A stretch of DNA of 12,726 nt from a virus (IMGVR_UViG_2585427728_000005); one strand, 5' to 3'; shown: positions 1,101-12,726, counted from the first letter of the stretch. A program made the numbers and translations. The notes: generated by a model not told the origin, from the sequence alone.

Positions 1101-1129
1101 GATTTGCGCTTTTGGACGGGAGATTCAGC

Positions 1130-1729
1130 GTGCTGATTGGCTATGTAAGGGTATCAACAAATGACCAGAATACAGACTTGCAACGAAACGCTCTTGTTTG
1201 TGCAGGATGCGAACAAATATTTGAAGATAAATTAAGCGGGACAAAGACAGACCGACCGGGATTAAAACGCGCTTTAAAGCGCCTTCAAAAAGGTGACACG
1301 CTGGTTGTCTGGAAACTGGATCGCCTCGGGCGAAGCATGAAACATCTGATTTCTCTCGTCGGGGAACTACGGGAGCGAGGGATTAATTTTCGCAGTCTGA
1401 CCGACAGCATAGATACATCTTCTCCAATGGGGCGTTTTTTCTTCCACGTGATGGGTGCCCTGGCTGAAATGGAACGTGAATTAATTGTTGAACGTACACT
1501 GGCCGGACTGGCGGCAGCGCGCGCACGGGGGCGCACAGGCGGACGTCGACCGAAGCTGACAAAAGAACAGCATGAGCAAATAGCAAGGCTAATCAAAAAC
1601 GGGCACGACAGAAAACAACTGGCAATAATTTACGGCATTGGCACATCGACGATTTATCGTTATCACCCTGTAGGCGATATACAGACTGAAGAAACAACCG
1701 GGCAGACTCAGGAAAATGAAAACCGCTAA
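1130..1729 (+). CDS. Serine recombinase DNA invertase of the Gin/Pin/Cin/Hin family
   Basis: From the GTG at 1130 the product is 199 aa and begins VLIGYVRVSTNDQNTDLQRNAL, the hallmark N-terminus of Gin/Pin with the catalytic Ser in YVRVST; it also has the GDTLVVWKLDRLGRS and MGRFFFHVMGALAEMERELI blocks and a C-terminal HTH region. A GGGAGA Shine-Dalgarno lies 6 nt upstream of the GTG. The ORF track begins at a TTG at 1112, which is probably not the real start. Confidence 0.9.
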   Translation: MLIGYVRVSTNDQNTDLQRNALVCAGCEQIFEDKLSGTKTDRPGLKRALKRLQKGDTLVVWKLDRLGRSMKHLISLVGELRERGINFRSLTDSIDTSSPMGRFFFHVMGALAEMERELIVERTLAGLAAARARGRTGGRRPKLTKEQHEQIARLIKNGHDRKQLAIIYGIGTSTIYRYHPVGDIQTEETTGQTQENENR

Positions 1730-2258: not shown

Positions 2259-5075
2259 TCAATCTTTATCGTAAAAACTGCCACGCCCGGCACGGGCGCG
2301 CCGTTCCATTTCTGCCCTGACCATTTCACCTACCAGTTTCGCAAGTTCGCGGGGATTCTGCGTAACAACGTTATGCAGATGAACATGAATTTCACCGCCA
2401 AATCCGGAGGCAACCGGCTCCCGATTACGGGAAGCTGCAGGAACTGATGCCACTGGCGATCGTATGGCCTCCGCCACCGGGCGGGAGCTGGCCGCAACAA
2501 CAGGGACCAGCGCCGGAGGCAGCGGAGCCGGGACCACGGGTGTGATATTAATTGCGGGGGCAGGCTTACTGACCTGCGCAATCTTCCGCTCCTGCCACTC
2601 CCCACGAACGGCAAGTGCGCGGGGCAGGTTCTTAAAGACAATATCGCCGGGGCCAATGCGTTTTTTCGTCTCATCAACCAGCTTACCTGTGTTATCAGCA
2701 ATTTTGCTGAGTCTGCGCAGCGTACCGGTATTGCTGTCTGTGAGCGGTTTATTGTCTTTGGGGTTATCACCTCCGGTACCATTGCCATTTTCCACAGGCT
2801 TCGGCGGATTGATTTTCGCCAGGTCCCCCTGAAGCAAGGCAACCTTGTCCTGAAGAATGGCCGCACGCTGTGCGTCTTCGATTTTCTTGCGCGCCCTTTC
2901 CGCTTCATCCGGAAGGACGCCAAGTTTTTCAAGTATCCACGCCAGCGTATCCAGCAGCATTTTTGCAGGTGTCAGAACAAGCTGTAACGCACCGCCAAGA
3001 ACGTTACCGAATATCTCGCCAGCACTGGTACATTTATCCAGCGTTTCCTTGCTGGACTCCATCGGTGACAGCAGCGATTTAAACCAGTTAAACACCTGGC
3101 TGATCCCGCTCCCGATTGCGTCAAAAACAGGACCAAACCGTTCAAAAGTTTCGCGCAACGGGGTCAGCCTTTCCATAATCCCGCTGAACACCCCGGCAAA
3201 AAATGCCCTGATGGGATCCCAGTATTTCCAGATAAGAACGGCAGCTCCGGCAAGCGCAGCCACGATAAGACCAACCGGACTGAACAACGCCCCGATAGCG
3301 CCTCCCAGCAAAGAAACGGACCCCGTCACCATTCCCCATAGTGCTGGCAGGACCCTGACAGCATTCATTGATCCGGTCAGGAGAGAAAAACCAAGACGCA
3401 GTTTTGCCAGCGGACCAGCAAGCACACCAATAGCCAGCGACAACGAGCCAACCGTTGCAGTCATTGCCAGCAACGCACCGCCTGCTATCAGTAGCTGGCG
3501 CGTCAGTGCCGGATGGGCCTGCGCCAGCGCCGTCACCCTTGATACCACCCGCGTGAGCCACTGCGTGACAGAACGCAGCGGACCGTCAATCAGATCTGCA
3601 ATGCGGATGCGCAACCCTTCCCATGCACTGCCGAGTGATTTCAGATCGCCGTCAAGGTTGTTGGCCATAACCTTTGCTGTGCGTTCAGCCTCACCGCGCG
3701 CGCCTTCAAGTTCTTTTCTCAGTTTGGGTAAGGAACCGTCACCCGCTGCATCAACGAGCGCCATAAACGATGTGAAAGCCTCTTCTCCGGCAATGTCCTT
3801 AAAGAACGATACCCGGTCAACTTCCCCGTATTTGCGGGTGGCTTTATAAAGGTCGGCCAGCACATCCTCCATCGGGCGCATTTTGCCCCCGGCATCCGAG
3901 ACGGACACGCCCAGCTCTTTCAGAGCTTCTGCCCCCGCCTTTGGCGGTGATGCCAGACGAGCCAGGCTGGCACGCATTGCCGTCCCGGCATCACTCCCTC
4001 TGATGCCCATATTCGCCAGCACGCCAGCCATCGCTGCGGCCTGCTCCAGCGATATTCCCAGCTTCCCCGCCACCGGACCTGCATATTTCATGGTTTCGCC
4101 CAGTGCGCGAAGGTCAGTGTTGGTACGGGTAAACGCTGCGGTGAGTGTGTCACCGACCCGGTCCATCTGGTCAGCAGAAAGGCCGAACTGCGTCAGGATA
4201 TTTGAGCCAATATCTGCCGTCTCGCCGAGATCCATACCGCCAGCCGTTGCCATGCTCAGCACGCCGGGAAGCGCAGCCTGAATGGCCTGCGGAGTGAAGC
4301 CAGCCATTGCAAGAAATGCCTGTCCACTGGCGGCATCGCCTGCGGTGAACTGCGTTTCAGAGCCAAGTTTTAACGCCTGCTCACGCAGCGCTTTAAACTG
4401 CGGGCTGTTCTGGTCGATTCGCGTCAGTGCCTGAACGCGGGACATCTCTTTGCCGAACCCGATCGCAGGCTGCAAAAAACGCCCGGCAGCATAGCCGCCC
4501 GCCGCTGCCGCACCAATTGCCAGCGCACCACCTGTTTTCAGTTTTCCCGCTGTTTCCTGCGCGCGCGAATACCGCTCACGCGCCCGCGTTACACGCGCAA
4601 GCGCCTGCCGTTCGCGTTCAAGCTGGTTGTTGTACTGTTCGGTGCGTCTGATGGCCTGCTGGATGGTGTTATCGCTGCCTGTCAGGGAAATGCCGTGGCG
4701 TTTCAGCTCTCCGCCAAGTTCCCGCATTTTCTGAATTTCCCGTGTGCGCGATTCATTCAGGCGTTCAAGCCGGGTGCTTAACTGCCGCATCAGCTTTTGT
4801 TGTTTTTCGCTGAGCACTGTACCCGTGCGTTGTAACTGATTAAGGGCGTTAAGCTGGCGTCGTGCTTTCAATATGCCAGCATCCGCTTTACTGACAGCGT
4901 CACGGGCGCGCTCAAATGAACGCGCCTGACGCTCGAGATTTTTGATCGCCCCCTGCGTTCGCTGGATGGAGTCACCAAGCTGCCCCATCAGGCGGCGGGC
5001 GTTTTCGGCAGGCCGGGTCAACCTGTCAACGGCGCTGAAAGCGACCCGGATATCAAGAGTCTTCATTATCTGCAT
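2259..5075 (-). CDS. T: Tail tape measure protein (gpT-like)
   Basis: 938-aa ORF with a long coiled-coil N-terminal region and Gly/Ala-rich hydrophobic segments typical of tape measure proteins. It lies between the chaperone gene E/E' and U. The start may be the internal Met at 5066. Confidence 0.85.
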   Translation of the reverse strand: MQIMKTLDIRVAFSAVDRLTRPAENARRLMGQLGDSIQRTQGAIKNLERQARSFERARDAVSKADAGILKARRQLNALNQLQRTGTVLSEKQQKLMRQLSTRLERLNESRTREIQKMRELGGELKRHGISLTGSDNTIQQAIRRTEQYNNQLERERQALARVTRARERYSRAQETAGKLKTGGALAIGAAAAGGYAAGRFLQPAIGFGKEMSRVQALTRIDQNSPQFKALREQALKLGSETQFTAGDAASGQAFLAMAGFTPQAIQAALPGVLSMATAGGMDLGETADIGSNILTQFGLSADQMDRVGDTLTAAFTRTNTDLRALGETMKYAGPVAGKLGISLEQAAAMAGVLANMGIRGSDAGTAMRASLARLASPPKAGAEALKELGVSVSDAGGKMRPMEDVLADLYKATRKYGEVDRVSFFKDIAGEEAFTSFMALVDAAGDGSLPKLRKELEGARGEAERTAKVMANNLDGDLKSLGSAWEGLRIRIADLIDGPLRSVTQWLTRVVSRVTALAQAHPALTRQLLIAGGALLAMTATVGSLSLAIGVLAGPLAKLRLGFSLLTGSMNAVRVLPALWGMVTGSVSLLGGAIGALFSPVGLIVAALAGAAVLIWKYWDPIRAFFAGVFSGIMERLTPLRETFERFGPVFDAIGSGISQVFNWFKSLLSPMESSKETLDKCTSAGEIFGNVLGGALQLVLTPAKMLLDTLAWILEKLGVLPDEAERARKKIEDAQRAAILQDKVALLQGDLAKINPPKPVENGNGTGGDNPKDNKPLTDSNTGTLRRLSKIADNTGKLVDETKKRIGPGDIVFKNLPRALAVRGEWQERKIAQVSKPAPAINITPVVPAPLPPALVPVVAASSRPVAEAIRSPVASVPAASRNREPVASGFGGEIHVHLHNVVTQNPRELAKLVGEMVRAEMERRARAGRGSFYDKD

Positions 5076-6159: not shown

Positions 6160-7343
6160 CAGGCACCTCCCAGCACCGCAAATGCGGGTTCAAAGTATTC
6201 ATCAGTAAACGTCTGGTAAAGCTCCATGTCTTCCAGTGGCGGAACGGGCGTATATTTGTAGCGAATGCGCACACGCCCCTGACGTAAATCCGTGGTGCTG
6301 TTATCCACCACGTCATACCAGCACTCCGCACCAATCAGTTTCCCGGCAGTAACCAGTGAATCCAGTTTTGCCCTGATGGCACTGATAACATCCTTCACGT
6401 TCGCAGGCGTCAGTGGACTGTCGATGGTTTCAAACTGCGCTTCCGCAATTGAATCAGCCAGCACCTGTGCGGTTCGGGTATACACCTCAAAGATGTAGGC
6501 GTTCGTTTCCGGTGTGCGGTTGCCCCAGAAGCGGAACCCGTTGCGACGAATAATGGTCGTGATTTCTTTGTTGTTGAGGCTGTTGGCATCACTGTCTTCG
6601 GCCTGCAACGACCAGAACACATGCCTGGACATCCCCAGCACATTTTTAACCGGAACGTTGGACAGCGATTTGTGCCAGCCCTGCTCATGGTCAATGTACG
6701 CACGAAGGCCGCACGCATAAGCAGGCGCGGGGAACGTTTCGTTTTCGCCACTTTTCGGGTTGTAGGCGATGAAGTCCGGCCATAAGAGCATCACTTCACG
6801 TTCGTTGAATTTCTGGCGGTAGGTAATCGCTTCAGCCATCGTGTTACAGCCGTGACATGAGGCATACACAAACGCACGCAGTTTACCCGCAATCACGCAC
6901 AGGGATTTTGTCACCGCCTCCGTGTCCAGCTCCGGCGCGGCCAGAATACGCGGACGGTATCCGATGCTTTCATCCTGCTCTGCAACAAGCAGCGCATACA
7001 TCCCCGTATAGCTGCCGTCATCCTCAGAACCACCGATAACCAGTTGATCCTGCGTCTTTTCGTCTTCTTCTTTGTGTTCAGCCACGCGAACGACGATCAC
7101 CTTTGTGCTCACCTGGTCTGCGATGGCCTTAAGCGCACGATAAAGCGTCCCCGTTGTCCCGCATTTTCCCAGCACGTCATTGACGCGGGTCAGCAGTGTG
7201 GGCTTGTTCAGCGGGAACAGCTTCGCGTCCGCATCATCCGCCGTTGCCACGATACCGATAACACTGGAATCAACATCATTAATCGCTGTTACCAGGTCGG
7301 TATTTTCCGTAACACGGGCACCATGAAAACGAGTTTCACTCAT
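6159..7343 (-). CDS. FI: Contractile tail sheath protein (gpFI-like)
   Basis: 394 aa (P2 FI is about 396 aa), first gene of the FI-FII-E-T-U block, with an AAGGGG Shine-Dalgarno upstream of the ATG at 7343. Confidence 0.9.
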   Translation of the reverse strand: MSETRFHGARVTENTDLVTAINDVDSSVIGIVATADDADAKLFPLNKPTLLTRVNDVLGKCGTTGTLYRALKAIADQVSTKVIVVRVAEHKEEDEKTQDQLVIGGSEDDGSYTGMYALLVAEQDESIGYRPRILAAPELDTEAVTKSLCVIAGKLRAFVYASCHGCNTMAEAITYRQKFNEREVMLLWPDFIAYNPKSGENETFPAPAYACGLRAYIDHEQGWHKSLSNVPVKNVLGMSRHVFWSLQAEDSDANSLNNKEITTIIRRNGFRFWGNRTPETNAYIFEVYTRTAQVLADSIAEAQFETIDSPLTPANVKDVISAIRAKLDSLVTAGKLIGAECWYDVVDNSTTDLRQGRVRIRYKYTPVPPLEDMELYQTFTDEYFEPAFAVLGGA

Positions 7344-7500
7344 AGCTTCAGCCCCTTGTATCCGTTAAATGATTCGGCAACAATCATCACCCACCACGCG
7401 CGTAATCTCACCCCTGCGCCGTTCTCCCGACCCGGCGACAACAAAAAGCAGTAACCCCCTCCGCACGCACATGCGACCATGCCACACAGGGAGGGAACAG

Positions 7501-8610
7501 ATGACCGATACCACCATGCAATTGCTCAGTCAGGGCACAGACCCCGTGAAAATGCCGGATTTTGATATTCTCGCGGAGGGTAAAACGCTGTCAGGCGTGG
7601 CAGAGCGCCTGATGACCCTGTCACTGACCGACAACCGGGGATTTGAGGCGGACCAGCTCACCATCACGCTGGATGATGCGGATGGTCAGTTGCAGCTACC
7701 GCAACGGGGCGCGCGCCTGACGGTTCTCATTGGCTGGAAAGGCGAACCGCTGACAGAAAAAGGCACTTACATTGTTGATGAAATCGCACACGAAGGACCG
7801 CCGGACAGGCTGACTGTTTCAGCCAGAAGCGCAGATTTTCGGGATGAATTTAACGTTAAACGTGAGGTGTCCTGGCATGATGTGACCGTTGAGCGTGTGG
7901 TATCCGCCATCGCTCATCGGTATGGTCTGAAACCGCAAATCAGCGAAATGCTGATGGATATCGAAATCGACCACGCCGACCAGACCGAAGAAAGCGACAT
8001 GTCCTTCCTTACGCGCATGGCGGAAATGCTGGGCGCAATCACCACGGTAAAAAGCGGTAATCTGTTATTCATCATGCCCGGTGGTGGCGTGAACGCACAG
8101 GGCCAGCCGTTGCCCTCGTTCGCCATCACGCGCAGCAGTGGCGATCGCCATCAGTTCCGCATTGCTGACCGCGAAGCGTATACGGGTGTACGCGCCTACT
8201 GGCTTGATCTTAATTACGGGAAAAAGAAAAAAGTCAGCGTGAAACGCCGCAAACCGCCAAAACCCAAAAAGGAGAAAAGCAGCAGCCGTGAAGGTGATTA
8301 TATGGAAGGCGCGGAAGGAAATGTGTTTGTGTTACGCAAGACTTATCAGAACGAGCAGGCAGCAAGACGCGCAGCGGCGGCAAAGTGGCAGCAGCTACAA
8401 CGCGGAGCCGCATCATTCTCCATCACACTGGCTCGTGGACGCGCAGAACTCTACCCCGAAATGCATGGCACGGTAACAGGATTTAAAAGCGAGATTGATA
8501 ATCAGGACTGGATTATTGCGAAAGCCGATCACACCATTGATAACAGTGGCTTTACCACGCAGCTTGAGCTTGAGGCAAAAATCCCGGAATGGATAGCGGA
8601 AACAGAGTGA
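7501..8610 (+). CDS. D: P2 gpD-like tail protein (late control D family)
   Basis: 369 aa from the ATG at 7501, which has a strong GGGAGGG Shine-Dalgarno 5 nt upstream; the ORF-track start at 7369 is probably too far upstream. Size and sequence character fit the gpD family, and it lies upstream of ogr as in P2. Confidence 0.8.
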   Translation: MTDTTMQLLSQGTDPVKMPDFDILAEGKTLSGVAERLMTLSLTDNRGFEADQLTITLDDADGQLQLPQRGARLTVLIGWKGEPLTEKGTYIVDEIAHEGPPDRLTVSARSADFRDEFNVKREVSWHDVTVERVVSAIAHRYGLKPQISEMLMDIEIDHADQTEESDMSFLTRMAEMLGAITTVKSGNLLFIMPGGGVNAQGQPLPSFAITRSSGDRHQFRIADREAYTGVRAYWLDLNYGKKKKVSVKRRKPPKPKKEKSSSREGDYMEGAEGNVFVLRKTYQNEQAARRAAAAKWQQLQRGAASFSITLARGRAELYPEMHGTVTGFKSEIDNQDWIIAKADHTIDNSGFTTQLELEAKIPEWIAETE

Positions 8611-8820: not shown

Positions 8821-11613
8821 CTAAATCTCAGCAATCTTTTTTTTACTGTGCTGTTCTATTATCAACTCTGCTTCCGCTTGGTATTCATGAGCTAACTCTC
8901 GAAGAATTCGGGCAAATCGATGAAAGCCTAGAAGTTCCATTGCATCAGACTTAGTGTGATATTGTTGGGCTAACTCCAATTCCGGTTTACCTTCTGGGTC
9001 AACAATGTAGACACCACGCGAATTTATTATCGCATTCTTATAACCAGTACGCACTTTATCAAGTTCACGTCTATTCAAAAACTCGGCCAGTTCTGGAAGT
9101 ATCCAATGCTCGTCATTTGCAGGGCTAAAAATTAATATGCTTCCAATCCTATGATAAGCAAAATCTAAATGGCCTGACTTTTCGCATTCTGTTTGGACAA
9201 AATCAAACCAGTTATTAAACGCCTTGACATCAAACTTGCCTTCAGCATCAACACCCGGAATCTTTTTCCAATCATCAAGTAAATAGAGTGAGTTTTTGGC
9301 AATATTTATTTCACTTTCAGATAGTTCTTTACTTGCTTTTTGAAATTCTGATCGATACGCATATTGAATGACTTCACAAAAAAAACTGGGTTCACTTGCA
9401 AGTTTTTTCTCTAATACTTGAGGATGCAACGAATCATTAGCCCCCCTGTTAATTACAGGTAGGTATGCCCATTCAATCTTTACTAAGTCGTCATCTGAAA
9501 CAGTGTTATCATTTTGAATATAATTCACAAGTTCATTAAATGAGTGAATATCAAACCGCTCAATATTTTCTGTGGTTCTAATTGATTGCAATAGAGCAAG
9601 CACAACCTTACTGCTATCAACTGAATTATCGATATGCAAAATTTTAGATAAACAATCTATTGCCATCAAGGGACGGTCTACTTTAATCAAGCAGTCTATA
9701 GCAAAATAAATTTCTTCCGTTGAATCACAGCTGTATGCATTAACAAGAGTATTTTTCCAATACTCGAAAGGAAAATCATCAAATGAAGCGTTTAATGCAT
9801 CCCATGTTTCTTTTTTAAACGGTAACAAAAGAAAAAAAGCAATCTTTTCTTGAGCACTCCAGTCATTAATAACTGTCAACACCCATGATTTTCCTTCTCT
9901 GTAGTTTTTAGCCTGTACATAACCAGAAGCAAGAGAATTTTCCTTTTTAATATCACTAACAATAAGTTTTTTCAGTATATCTAAAGGAATTTCTAGATCT
10001 TCTGCGACCAGGCTACTACCAACAAACTCAGGCCTTTCAATAGATAGAGAGAATTCTAAGACTCCATCAATACCATTAATAGCATATATTTCGCATATTG
10101 ATTGCCCTCGTTCTTTTGTCAACCTTTCTTCTTGGTCCCGCCAGTTTCCATTTTCATCAAATAGGAAGTAATTGTTTTGTGCAAAAAGTCGCTTGCTATA
10201 AAGCATAGGATCTTCGGGCTTCAAGACTGTAGAAACATCTTTGATTTTTTCATTTTGTTCTGGTTGCATTGCCCAATAAGCACCTGAGAATCTTTTGTTT
10301 TTGTTATAAACTTCTAAACATTTTTCCCACACCGCTAACTTCAATTCAGCACTATCTGTTTTTTTAGAAAAATCATACAATAGTTTAATTGCATCATCGA
10401 ATTTAAATGGCGCTAAACTACCAATATTTTCAACTAAATCAACAAGTCTTAATGATGATTTACTTGCCAATTCAATTGTTAATTGAGTGTATATTTCAAT
10501 CTGAGTACGGCACTCATCACCCGATGGCCTTTTATTAAAACCGTTAGGAATAAAGTTTCTAAAAGTTGGAATATGTGTGCCAGATGTTACTTGCGTGTTG
10601 TTGGGTAGCAACTGAACTAAAACACGCCATGCTGTATCGGGCCACTCCCTTGCCAATGCGTTGAAAGCAGCAATACGTCTATCTATATCAGCTGTAGTAT
10701 GAGGAAGCCATGGTAACAATATGTTGATTATCGAGTTAAGTGGCCTGTTAGCCCAATTGCCACCAGGATCATGGCTATCCAGCTCCCCTAATATTACTAA
10801 AGAGCGAGATAAATAGTTAGGCGCCCAAGCTAATCCTTCAATAGCCCATAGCAGTCCTGTCATATAATTCCGACCTGAAATTCCACCGATACCTTCCTGT
10901 GCAAAAAGTGAATCAAATGGCTTGTCTTGGTGAGATGCAGCATTTTCCACTTCGTCGATAAAACAGTCAGGAGCACTTTCCGCAAGCATAACTTGAATAT
11001 CTTGCGTACTAGCCCATAATTGCCAGCTAGAAGCCGAAAAAACCTCTTTAACCACACTTGAGGCGCAATATTGCCCTTTATATTTTGAGCAATTAGTAAG
11101 TAACTCTTGCTTTGTTGCAACTAATGCCAACCCTTCGGATAGTCCTTTCCTTATTAATCGGCTGTGTGGTAAAACCTTCCCATAAATTACTGCTGCATAA
11201 CGCTCTTCAGGTGCCAGTTCAAATTGTGGGTCGATAGTTTTAAAAACGGATACAACAGTCGTCCGAAACAAATCCAAATGATCATCGAATAATCTTGACG
11301 ATACCGTTTGAAATGTTTGTATTCTATCTTTAAAACTCCAAGAACCTCTCTCATGAATCAAAGGACTATCTTGCATCCCTTCAATTATTCTTAATTTTCG
11401 AATCCAACTGTCATATGACTCGCTAATAAGGCTTGTAATTATATCAATATCACCATTATTTTTTTCATCCCAGCAACCGACTAAAACAGCAATCGCTAAC
11501 TCAGTCGCATAATCAACATTATCACTATTGTATACAATTAAGTTACCAGCAACATTATGGCCTGTTCCGGTATGATTTTGACTAATTGAACTGCAGCTAT
11601 GAATGTTATCCAT
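8821..11613 (-). CDS. Large (~930 aa) protein of unknown function; second gene of the AT-rich cargo operon between D and ogr
   Basis: Uninterrupted 2.8-kb ORF in AT-rich DNA, where long open frames are unlikely by chance. ATG at 11613 with a GAGG Shine-Dalgarno 8 nt upstream; the ORF track starts at a GTG at 11619 that overlaps the upstream stop. I see no Walker A, HExxH, HNH or RT motif and cannot assign a family. Confidence 0.85.
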   Translation of the reverse strand: MDNIHSCSSISQNHTGTGHNVAGNLIVYNSDNVDYATELAIAVLVGCWDEKNNGDIDIITSLISESYDSWIRKLRIIEGMQDSPLIHERGSWSFKDRIQTFQTVSSRLFDDHLDLFRTTVVSVFKTIDPQFELAPEERYAAVIYGKVLPHSRLIRKGLSEGLALVATKQELLTNCSKYKGQYCASSVVKEVFSASSWQLWASTQDIQVMLAESAPDCFIDEVENAASHQDKPFDSLFAQEGIGGISGRNYMTGLLWAIEGLAWAPNYLSRSLVILGELDSHDPGGNWANRPLNSIINILLPWLPHTTADIDRRIAAFNALAREWPDTAWRVLVQLLPNNTQVTSGTHIPTFRNFIPNGFNKRPSGDECRTQIEIYTQLTIELASKSSLRLVDLVENIGSLAPFKFDDAIKLLYDFSKKTDSAELKLAVWEKCLEVYNKNKRFSGAYWAMQPEQNEKIKDVSTVLKPEDPMLYSKRLFAQNNYFLFDENGNWRDQEERLTKERGQSICEIYAINGIDGVLEFSLSIERPEFVGSSLVAEDLEIPLDILKKLIVSDIKKENSLASGYVQAKNYREGKSWVLTVINDWSAQEKIAFFLLLPFKKETWDALNASFDDFPFEYWKNTLVNAYSCDSTEEIYFAIDCLIKVDRPLMAIDCLSKILHIDNSVDSSKVVLALLQSIRTTENIERFDIHSFNELVNYIQNDNTVSDDDLVKIEWAYLPVINRGANDSLHPQVLEKKLASEPSFFCEVIQYAYRSEFQKASKELSESEINIAKNSLYLLDDWKKIPGVDAEGKFDVKAFNNWFDFVQTECEKSGHLDFAYHRIGSILIFSPANDEHWILPELAEFLNRRELDKVRTGYKNAIINSRGVYIVDPEGKPELELAQQYHTKSDAMELLGFHRFARILRELAHEYQAEAELIIEQHSKKKIAEI

Positions 11614-11618
11614 AGACA

Positions 11619-11939
11619 CTACCTCGTAATTTTATTTCCACCAATATTATCACCAGTGCCACTATGGTTTTGAATAATGACAGTTGCTGCATGAGGTTTT
11701 ATAGACGAGAGTATTTTTTGAATTTCACTACTATCCAATAGTTTTCTTTCAATTGCTATTTCACTCATTTCATCGTTCAAAGACAGTTTTTCAAGCTCTT
11801 TAGCTAAAGCAGGGGCTACAGCCTCATCAACAACCCAATTTTTTAACTTTTCTTTTATTGAAGTTGCAGTAATCGAAACATGATGTTTAAGCATGTCATA
11901 AACTATGCCAGAAAGTATCGTCGAAGATAAAAAATCCAT
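11619..11939 (-). CDS. Small (106 aa) predicted helical protein of unknown function; first gene of the cargo operon
   Basis: ATG at 11939 with an AAGGGA Shine-Dalgarno 8 nt upstream. Its TAG stop (11619-11621) lies 6 nt from the ATG of the large gene, suggesting translational coupling. The C-terminus carries the motif QNHSGTGDNIGGN, which is also present at the N-terminus of the large protein. Confidence 0.75.
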   Translation of the reverse strand: MDFLSSTILSGIVYDMLKHHVSITATSIKEKLKNWVVDEAVAPALAKELEKLSLNDEMSEIAIERKLLDSSEIQKILSSIKPHAATVIIQNHSGTGDNIGGNKITR

Positions 11940-12134: not shown

Positions 12135-12395
12135 ATGTTCCGTTGCCCGCTTTGTGGCGCATCTGCCCGCATCCGTACCAGTCGTCCGGAAAATGATTCA
12201 AATACCGTGCGGCAAAAGTATTACCAGTGTAACAACTTGGAATGCGGCGTCTGCTTCTCAACACTGGAAGCTTTCCATAAGTTCACATCAAAACACGCCT
12301 CAAGTGTTCACTCTTCAGAGGGTATCCCGTGGCATGCTCTGCCTGCTTCACACAGGGGAAACAGTCAGATGAGTTTGCCCTTACCTCAGGATTAA
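12135..12395 (+). CDS. ogr: Ogr/Delta-family zinc-finger late gene transcription activator
   Basis: N-terminus MFRCPLCGASARIRTSR...YYQCNNLECGVCF carries the C-x2-C...C-x4-C zinc finger and aligns with P2 Ogr as I recall it (MFHCPLCQHAAHARTSR...YHQCQNVNCSATF). A GGGAGG Shine-Dalgarno lies 5 nt upstream of the ATG. It lies downstream of D as in P2. Confidence 0.85.
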   Translation: MFRCPLCGASARIRTSRPENDSNTVRQKYYQCNNLECGVCFSTLEAFHKFTSKHASSVHSSEGIPWHALPASHRGNSQMSLPLPQD

Positions 12396-12455
12396 CAAGC
12401 AGAATTGCCGGAGTAACAAAAAAGCGATAGATTACGCGCGGGTGCCTTTCGGCTG

Positions 12456-12719
12456 ATGGTCGGAGGGAATACCCGAAGGCCAGATGTGGAAAGGCCCCGG
12501 AAAACATTTCTGTTTAACCGAGGCCCTAACCGCATTACCTTGACAAGTGAAAGGTTAGCGCCTCTCCGGAAAAGGAGCAAGTGCTATGTCGCAAAAATCG
12601 CTTACGGCCATCACGTTCTGCGTGACGGCAATCCTCATCATCTGGATGCTGCACGGTTCGCTGTGCGAAATACGGATGAGCTTCTGGGGAGCGGAGTTTG
12701 CGGCGTTCTTACAGTGTAA
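12456..12719 (+). CDS. mok-like overlapping leader ORF of the hok locus
   Basis: An 87-codon frame that begins upstream of the hok-like gene and overlaps almost all of it in a different frame, as mok does in hok/mok/sok loci. Assigned by position only. Confidence 0.3.
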   Translation: MVGGNTRRPDVERPRKTFLFNRGPNRITLTSERLAPLRKRSKCYVAKIAYGHHVLRDGNPHHLDAARFAVRNTDELLGSGVCGVLTV

Positions 12720-12726
12720 GCAGTAA
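12586..12726 (+). CDS. hok: Hok/Gef-family type I toxin (small membrane peptide)
   Basis: 46-codon ORF, too short for the ORF track: MSQKSLTAITFCVTAILIIWMLHGSLCEIRMSFWGAEFAAFLQCKQ, ending in TAA at the last base of the window. It has an N-terminal TM helix, the conserved SLCE(I/L) block and an E-x-AAFL-x-CK tail that resemble HokA as I recall it. An AGGAG Shine-Dalgarno lies 8 nt upstream. Confidence 0.75.
   Translation: MSQKSLTAITFCVTAILIIWMLHGSLCEIRMSFWGAEFAAFLQCKQ

Follow-up and report, generated by a model that had tools for sequence, protein, structure and literature searches.

The hok/mok/sok (parB) locus of plasmid R1 is the paradigm of type I toxin-antitoxin systems. In R1 the mok Shine-Dalgarno GAGG lies at 104-107 and the mok AUG at 116-118, and translation of mok up to the hok Shine-Dalgarno is required (PMC9841398). 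Among prophage systems, hokW-sokW of the Stx2 prophage Sp5 from E. coli O157:H7 Sakai functions as a toxin-antitoxin system of type I, with HokW aiding lysis and the release of phage upon mitomycin C treatment (PMC8621323). A 2026 preprint by Escalera-Maurer et al. compiled 32,532 hok loci, counted 6290 copies of hok among IMG/VR phages, and found hok to be four-fold enriched in prophages (bioRxiv 10.1101/2025.08.07.668861).

The locus described here lies at the end of a viral DNA stretch of 12,726 nt, the whole of which was analyzed and is referred to as the window. It was deduced to be, very likely, a hok/sok-type type I toxin-antitoxin cassette that follows ogr and forms the terminal gene in a P88-like, P2-like E. 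coli prophage. With R1 it shares a small single-helix Hok toxin, a predicted sok promoter inside the leader and opposite the hok Shine-Dalgarno, and the 3' order of protective stem-loop, fold-back element (fbi) and terminator. The likeness extends to features that are predicted here, namely a cis-antisense Sok RNA some 60 nt long, made up of an unpaired 5' tail and a single long hairpin, a full-length mRNA closed by a 5' tac and a 3' fbi element, and alternative ucb/Shine-Dalgarno and Shine-Dalgarno/dcb pairings. The differences from R1 are a toxin of 46 rather than 52 amino acids with a shorter N terminus, a leader shorter by about 27 nt (hok AUG at +147 rather than +174), and residence in an integrated prophage rather than on a plasmid. 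Furthermore, while in R1 the GAGG is followed by an AUG and mok, neither an AUG nor a conserved overlapping frame is present here, and the DNA similarity to the leader model of Rfam falls below the curated threshold. The K-12 loci hokB/mokB/sokB and hokC/mokC/sokC belong to the same Rfam leader family and have Sok on the same model positions. The hokW-sokW pair is also prophage-borne and is the namesake of PHROG 251 ('MokW-like host killing'), which the protein described here matches, but HokW has 51 amino acids and belongs to a lambdoid Stx phage, whereas the present cassette is P2-like.

The Hok protein and its prophage setting

The hok gene was placed at 12586..12726 (+) from Pfam, PHROG and RefSeq data. 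It has 46 codons, from ATG 12586 to TAA 12724-12726, and translates to MSQKSLTAITFCVTAILIIWMLHGSLCEIRMSFWGAEFAAFLQCKQ; the last base of the window is the end of the hok stop codon. The ORF listing thus agreed with the original prediction of a 46-codon ORF ending exactly at the window edge. The assignment of that ORF to the Hok/Gef family, for which a Pfam profile search had been suggested, was borne out by HOK_GEF (PF01848) at 29.9 bits (gathering cut-off 22, E=4.1e-7), with residues 7-44 aligned on profile positions 5-42 of 42, and by a full-length match to PHROG 251 (E=1.3e-22). The closest NCBIfam model was the HokA equivalog (NF007290), at 34 bits against a cut-off of 89; judged by these scores, HokA is the nearest named relative but the protein is no HokA orthologue. 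No PADLOC model matched Hok, and the RefSeq (PGAP) entry for the identical protein is WP_000078916.1, 'Hok/Gef family protein'.

The peptide has an N-terminal hydrophobic helix plus the conserved C..T...LCE...E residues. Residues C12, T14, L26, C27, E28 and E37 correspond to C16, T18, L30, C31, E32 and E41 of the preprint logo, and at this offset of -4 the peptide has each of the seven residues that are conserved in >80% of Hok peptides (bioRxiv 10.1101/2025.08.07.668861). The identical peptide is entry 72_1621 of Table S2 in that study, where it belongs to identity cluster 72, a high-abundance cluster, and to the toxicity-assay set; 42 of the 45 Hok constructs were toxic, and 72_1621 was not one of the three nontoxic ones (bioRxiv 10.1101/2025.08.07.668861). 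These assays were arabinose induced and used the coding sequence alone behind a foreign promoter and Shine-Dalgarno (bioRxiv 10.1101/2025.08.07.668861). The cluster 72 study differs from the present analysis in covering the coding sequence only, with Mok, Sok and the mRNA ends stated as not analyzed, and it makes no mention of 'ogr', 'P2-like' or 'Peduoviridae' (bioRxiv 10.1101/2025.08.07.668861). The median pairwise dN/dS was 0.24 for the hok frame, compared to 0.68 for the +1 frame and 1.88 for the +2 frame, which points to purifying selection on the Hok peptide, and frameshifts or truncations were limited to about 3 copies out of more than 125. The assignment of hok as encoding a 46-amino-acid, single-helix membrane toxin of the Hok/Gef family is strongly supported by these comparisons.

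Directly upstream of hok is ogr (12135..12395), which encodes an Ogr/Delta zinc-finger protein (Ogr_Delta, 52.4 bits). The remainder of the window carries a P2-type tail module, in which gpD is encoded on the plus strand and gpU, the tape measure, E, the FII tube and the FI sheath on the minus strand. E. coli 19AR1724 (NZ_CP195804.1) matches the ogr-hok stretch at 100% identity, and 1158 of the 5426 complete E. coli genomes searched had this stretch when at least 80% of the query had to be covered. The same arrangement, at 93-95% identity and with hok labelled 'MokW-like host killing', occurs in P88-like phages (Xuanwuvirus, Peduoviridae). In the source genome the next gene past hok is the chromosomal ihfA, convergent with hok, and in a BLAST comparison with K-12 the 100% identity begins at L001 6891, 264 bp past the hok stop and at the ihfA terminator. 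From these two observations it was deduced that hok is the last prophage gene. The original prediction had allowed that the locus could mark the prophage/chromosome junction; a prophage edge next to ogr was indeed found, but by the K-12 comparison the junction itself lies about 264 bp beyond the window.

The hok cassette alone was detected in 1757 genomes, about one-third of complete E. coli genomes, and a single genome may carry as many as nine copies. BLAST retrieved ten cassettes, which lay next to ogr, between the lambdoid J/lom and tail-fibre genes, or beside ykgM in O157:H7. In all ten, similarity ran from the hok -35 hexamer to a terminator about 120 nt past the hok stop, and these shared limits mark out a mobile unit of about 440 bp. 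The cassette appears to behave like a self-contained moron. Loci that carry it in settings other than that beside ogr are L009, L010, L007, L150 (4422 and 5146) and L233 (5544-5909 and 6002-6367). Two viral contigs carried the cassette as two tandem diverged copies, 460-720 bp apart.

More than 10 IMG/VR contigs end at the same point as the window, with the pattern match 162 nt from the contig end. The end of the window at the hok stop suggests that the provirus boundary was trimmed back to the last gene called. Such trimming costs the prophage about 264 bp of its end and hok its 3' untranslated region, with stem-loop, fold-back element and terminator, and the practical consequence is that provirus callers cut the cassette and lose these elements.

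Leader, fold-back elements and Sok

The candidate hok promoter lies at 12406..12433 (+), with a -35 hexamer TTGCCG (12406-12411), a 16-nt spacer and a -10 hexamer TAGATT (12428-12433) that ends 6 nt upstream of the homology-defined +1, G12440. Both hexamers, which had been proposed from the sequence alone, were found where predicted and are consistent with the conserved 5' end at G12440. A consensus promoter scan returned no sigma-70 site anywhere in the hok locus, and for the hok promoter this is explained by each hexamer matching the consensus at just 4 of 6 positions. The hok and sok promoters were both placed by homology, their hexamers being weak consensus matches at 3-4 of 6 positions each. 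In hok cassettes from unrelated contexts (P2-like, lambdoid and chromosomal), similarity starts at the -35 hexamer, and the variants keep TTGnnn and TAnAnT.

The Rfam model RF01794, which carries the name 'sok' but models the hok mRNA leader, aligned to 12440..12599 (+) over all of its positions 1-157. The score of 49.4 bits (E=6.7e-10) was below the gathering score of 59, compared to 118 bits for K-12 hokC and 110 bits for hokB, and it was deduced that the sok gene and hok mRNA elements of this subfamily are unannotated because of this shortfall. Model position 1 falls on G12440, as it falls on the 5' ends of hokB and hokC in their alignments. K-12 hokA was dropped as a leader reference, even though it is the nearest protein relative, since IS150 interrupts it 32 nt upstream of hokA, and hokB and hokC were therefore used.

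The 5' end of the mRNA was assigned from Rfam position 1 and the folds as a tac-like element, GGGUGCCUUUCGGCU (12440..12454, +). In the predicted folds it has two alternative partners, the fbi element in the full-length RNA and AAAGGCCCC (12490-12498) in the 3'-shortened RNA. The ucb-like box GGCCCCGG (12493..12500, +), whose alignment columns are invariant or nearly so, has CCGAGGCC as its pairing partner in the closed form and the mRNA 5' end in the open one. The segment CCGAGGCC (12518..12525, +) includes GAGG 12520-12523 and was identified from the Rfam alignments with hokB and hokC as the positional homologue of the mok Shine-Dalgarno. Further downstream, GCCUCUCC (12560-12567) and the hok Shine-Dalgarno GGAG (12574-12577) were assigned as a pair from the predicted folds (12560..12577, +). 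The remaining elements lie downstream of the window end and comprise a strong stem-loop, GACGGGGGAGCAAUCCCCCGUC (L001 6637-6658), the fold-back element AAGGCACCC (L001 6686-6694), which sits about 60 nt beyond the window end and is complementary to the mRNA 5' end GGGUGCCUU, and an intrinsic terminator (L001 6714-6750).

Folding of the full-length 410-nt transcript gave -178.1 kcal/mol (z=-6.8). In this minimum free energy fold, nucleotides 1-15 pair with nucleotides ~340-355 (L001 ~6680-6695), GGCCCCGG forms a helix with CCGAGGCC, and CUCC masks the hok Shine-Dalgarno GGAG. When the fold-back element was left out, the 5' end instead paired with AAAGGCCCC (the tac stem), GAGGC paired with GCCUC, and the hok Shine-Dalgarno was largely unpaired. 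This is the alternative form that the R1 model predicts and the Rfam consensus depicts. In an alignment of 58 sequences, the closed structure was 91.0% paired, against 38-44% with the partners slid, and the open leader structure was 92.5% paired, against 28-54%; structures taken from one member favor themselves in such slid-partner controls. The individual helices were 91.6% (5' end/fbi), 95.7% (tac stem), 93.7% (Shine-Dalgarno masking) and 98.6% (GAGGC/GCCUC) paired. Compensatory changes were confined mostly to the small hairpins and the 3' stem-loop, the switch helices being nearly invariant. This near invariance, which leaves little covariation evidence, is to be expected where the same bases serve two pairings plus the antisense gene. 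The leader and 3' untranslated elements were conserved at or above the level of hok codon positions 1 and 2. These data support the prediction of a hok mRNA of about 405 nt that is closed by pairing of its 5' end with the fold-back element downstream of the gene.

The predicted Sok RNA, of about 57-61 nt, was placed at 12484..12544 (-) through the Rfam alignment with the annotated K-12 RNAs, its 3' end being approximate. The RefSeq-annotated sokC and sokB of K-12 span RF01794 positions ~44-106, which correspond to window positions 12484-12544. The RNA starts with the single-stranded 5' tail GUCAAGGUAAUGCGGUUAG, continues into the hairpin GGCCUCGG..CCGGGGCC and ends in a tail of UUUCC, and its predicted fold had -24.1 kcal/mol (z = -4.0) with the 5' tail unpaired. 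The antisense promoter, which the earlier reader had failed to place, was predicted by homology with sokB/sokC at 12552..12580 (-). It consists of a -35 TTGCTC (reverse complement of 12575-12580), a 17-nt spacer, a -10 TAACCT (reverse complement of 12552-12557) and a further 7 nt to the +1, G12544. The geometry is identical to that of sokB (TTGCCG-17-TAAGAT-7-G versus TTGCTC-17-TAACCT-7-G), and promoter and hairpin of sokB and sokC align with those found here almost base for base. In both sokB and the present RNA, a tail of 16-19 nt precedes the hairpin GGCCUCGG...C(C)GGGGCC, which is followed by a short U-rich stretch at the end. The segment AGGTTAGCGCCTC, which contains the sok -10 box, was invariant in 10 of 10 loci retrieved by BLAST, down to 74% identity, and the sok -35 overlaps the hok Shine-Dalgarno. 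A constitutive antisense gene opposite the leader, with promoter geometry and hairpin like those of sokB/sokC, is strongly supported by this homology. The expectation that a sok-type antisense gene and the fold-back elements of the hok mRNA would lie in roughly 12400..12590 was accordingly upheld.

The target of the predicted Sok tail (12526-12544) was the least conserved segment of the locus, with a mean column identity of 0.79 compared to 0.83 at hok third positions. It occurred in 29 variants among the 58 sequences, including indels, with invariant blocks on both sides. This variability fits a specificity determinant that would let several copies share one genome, and it may reflect diversified antitoxin specificity among co-resident copies.

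The overlapping frame and the control of Hok translation

An 87-codon frame at 12456..12719 (+), in the +2 frame relative to hok, had been noted in the original prediction as overlapping hok in the manner of mok. The open frame is present, but the mok role was not upheld, as no start is conserved and phage P88 carries a stop. The frame matched no Pfam or PHROG family, and its ATG at 12456 has no Shine-Dalgarno and falls within the tac stem, 17 nt from the 5' end of the mRNA. Among 70 distinct relatives, most of them close and some retrieved with a pattern that fixed the sok -10 block, 36 had no upstream ATG, GTG or TTG ORF reaching the hok Shine-Dalgarno, and no single upstream start position was found in more than 13. 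In most relatives the +2 frame is stopped at -43 (as in P88), -28 or -16 or is broken by frameshifting indels, and in all of them it is stop-free from at least -16 to +83. When the 16-nt pattern AGGTTAGCGCCTCYCY was scanned over genome contigs, almost only chance matches in unrelated phyla were returned, with the exception of Salmonella L053; a longer pattern scanned over viral contigs retrieved hok loci successfully.

The position corresponding to the mok start was also compared. In K-12, the AUGs of mokB and mokC are annotated at the homologous model position, which reads CAUUA here (12533-12537) and provides no start. The GAGG at 12520-12523 is invariant across the family with no start codon following it, and its conservation was attributed to the part that it plays in the Sok hairpin and in the two mRNA conformations. 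Other candidate starts were considered and set aside. The near-invariant AUG at 12484 was rejected because the ORFs that it opens range from 1 to 79 codons with scattered stops, and its conservation was ascribed to the tac stem. Near-cognate codons after the GAGG (AUU 12534 here, AUC or AUA in relatives) were rejected because, on inspection of the alignment by eye, position and frame vary; L005, for example, reads AUC-UAA and P88 runs six codons to UGA. Stops at 12541-43 and 12553-55 excluded that Hok is extended in frame at its N terminus in the way annotated for mokC. From the unconserved starts, the stops in relatives and the dN/dS of 1.88, the 87-codon frame was deduced to be lineage specific, with no conserved mok; a function as mok is not supported, and the frame appears to be a local accident. 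Despite the missing canonical start, initiation at a near-cognate codon may occur in some members.

The alternatives differ in what they make of these observations. In a canonical three-gene hok/mok/sok system, the 87-codon frame or a shorter version of it would be translated and would open the hok ribosome-binding site as in R1, where mok translation is essential (PMC9841398). The uninterrupted frame from 12456 to 12719 with its in-frame TTG 12540 and AUU 12534, the stop-free interval common to all relatives and the invariant mok Shine-Dalgarno homologue speak for such a system. It was nevertheless deemed unlikely, given the 36 of 70 relatives that lack a canonical start with an ORF to the hok Shine-Dalgarno, the best start position being held by 13 at most, and given the stops at -43, -28 or -16 in P88 and many others. 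Moreover, the segment after the GAGG is the least conserved in the locus (0.79 identity, with frameshifting indels), the ATG at 12456 is buried in the tac stem close to the 5' end with no Shine-Dalgarno, and the retention of GAGG is accounted for by the Sok hairpin and the two mRNA conformations.

The missing mok start could also be a symptom of decay, the locus being a silent relic like the five chromosomal hok loci of K-12 described as inactivated. The weakness of both promoters would agree with this, as would the IS elements that flank or interrupt hokA and hokC in K-12. The low dN/dS of Hok and the scarcity of frameshifted or truncated copies argue against decay, as do leader and 3' elements conserved at least as well as codon positions 1 and 2, the spread of the cassette over several phage types and about one-third of complete E. 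coli genomes, and the presence of the identical peptide among the toxic constructs of the preprint (bioRxiv 10.1101/2025.08.07.668861). A relic is consequently thought improbable, to about the same degree as translation of a mok. In favor of a chance ORF that is not a gene are its shortness, at 46 codons, and its place at the window edge; the Pfam score above threshold, the strong PHROG match, the linked leader with its homology to hok leaders, selection favoring the hok frame over the other two and the curated RefSeq annotation were taken to have refuted it already.

A bolder reading, held tentatively and with somewhat less than even confidence, is that the 46-amino-acid Hok subfamily of cluster 72, common in P2-like and lambdoid prophages, is altogether mok-free. 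The tac/fbi switch would then act on the hok Shine-Dalgarno itself, with GCCUCUCC exchanging GGAG for GAGGC, while Sok would only trigger decay or block a vestigial ribosome loading site that has no start. In the absence of a conserved mok frame, Hok translation is probably controlled directly by Shine-Dalgarno masking and mRNA decay, without coupling to a leader ORF, unlike in R1. By analogy with R1 and from the predicted folds, the full-length hok mRNA would be inert, with GGCCCCGG masking the GAGG and CUCC masking the hok Shine-Dalgarno. Slow 3' trimming would strip the fold-back element, and the 5' end would then capture GGCCCCGG. GAGGC would thereby pair with GCCUC, exposing the Sok target loop and the hok Shine-Dalgarno. 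The refolding suggests a mok-free route to Hok activation in which GCCUCUCC would release the hok Shine-Dalgarno once GAGGC becomes available. For as long as Sok is made it would pair through its 19-nt tail and the duplex would be destroyed; once Sok synthesis stops, the stable pool of hok mRNA would be translated and the membrane depolarized.

The type I system tisB/istR-1 has a ribosome standby site, its antisense RNA binds far upstream of the masked toxin ribosome-binding site, and it has no leader ORF; its toxin and RNAs are unrelated to hok/sok. A hok locus without mok would resemble this layout, and the idea of a standby mechanism here is speculation by analogy. If the mok-free reading is true, cluster 72 would be a natural simplification of the hok/mok/sok circuit known from textbooks, and the hypervariability of the Sok-tail target, with 29 variants in the 58 sequences, would let up to nine copies per genome coexist without cross talk. 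The cassette may serve to retain the prophage, to exclude other phages or to help in lysis; the prophage stabilization or abortive infection by hok/sok put forward in the original prediction stands as conjecture.

The hok cassette is ordinary and already known, being RefSeq annotated, with its exact peptide catalogued and assayed and its prophage enrichment reported, and little changes for the field. The apparently mok-less subfamily seems to be the only mildly new point of the analysis, and in the literature collection searched no paper was found that describes such a subfamily or a hok position adjoining ogr. That a common subfamily apparently lacks mok would be a small, testable refinement of the R1 paradigm. 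It follows for annotation that an open overlapping frame should receive no mok label without comparative support.

Neighboring genes of the window

A two-gene insert separates gpD from ogr at 8821..11939 (-). Its GapS6a-family protein (11619..11939, -) scored 136 bits with NCBIfam and matched Pfam HetE-N, while no Pfam, NCBIfam or PADLOC match was obtained for the 932-amino-acid partner (8821..11619, -), and no PADLOC model matched this candidate GapS6 pair. GAPS6 was shown to be an anti-phage system in Vibrio GMT islands, its second protein being described as TPR and PIN (bioRxiv 10.1101/2023.03.28.534373). In phage P88 the end of gpD and the ogr gene are 43 bp apart, and the insert was thus deduced to be cargo in a P2-type hotspot. 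The ogr homologue of P88 itself (3036..3296), situated between gpD and hok and at 93.5% DNA identity to the window, is unannotated in the RefSeq record (L002, NC_026014).

RefSeq annotates gpD at L001 1658..2511 (window ~7757..8610) as an 801-nt VgrG/Pvc8-family coding sequence plus an upstream pseudogene fragment. A 413-codon open frame at 7369..8610 carries the Phage_GPD domain, and the start or integrity of gpD may be misannotated. Beside the tail genes, at 1112..1729 (+), lies a serine resolvase/invertase (Resolvase and HTH_7, E=1.5e-50), which is probably a Gin/Cin-type tail-fibre invertase.
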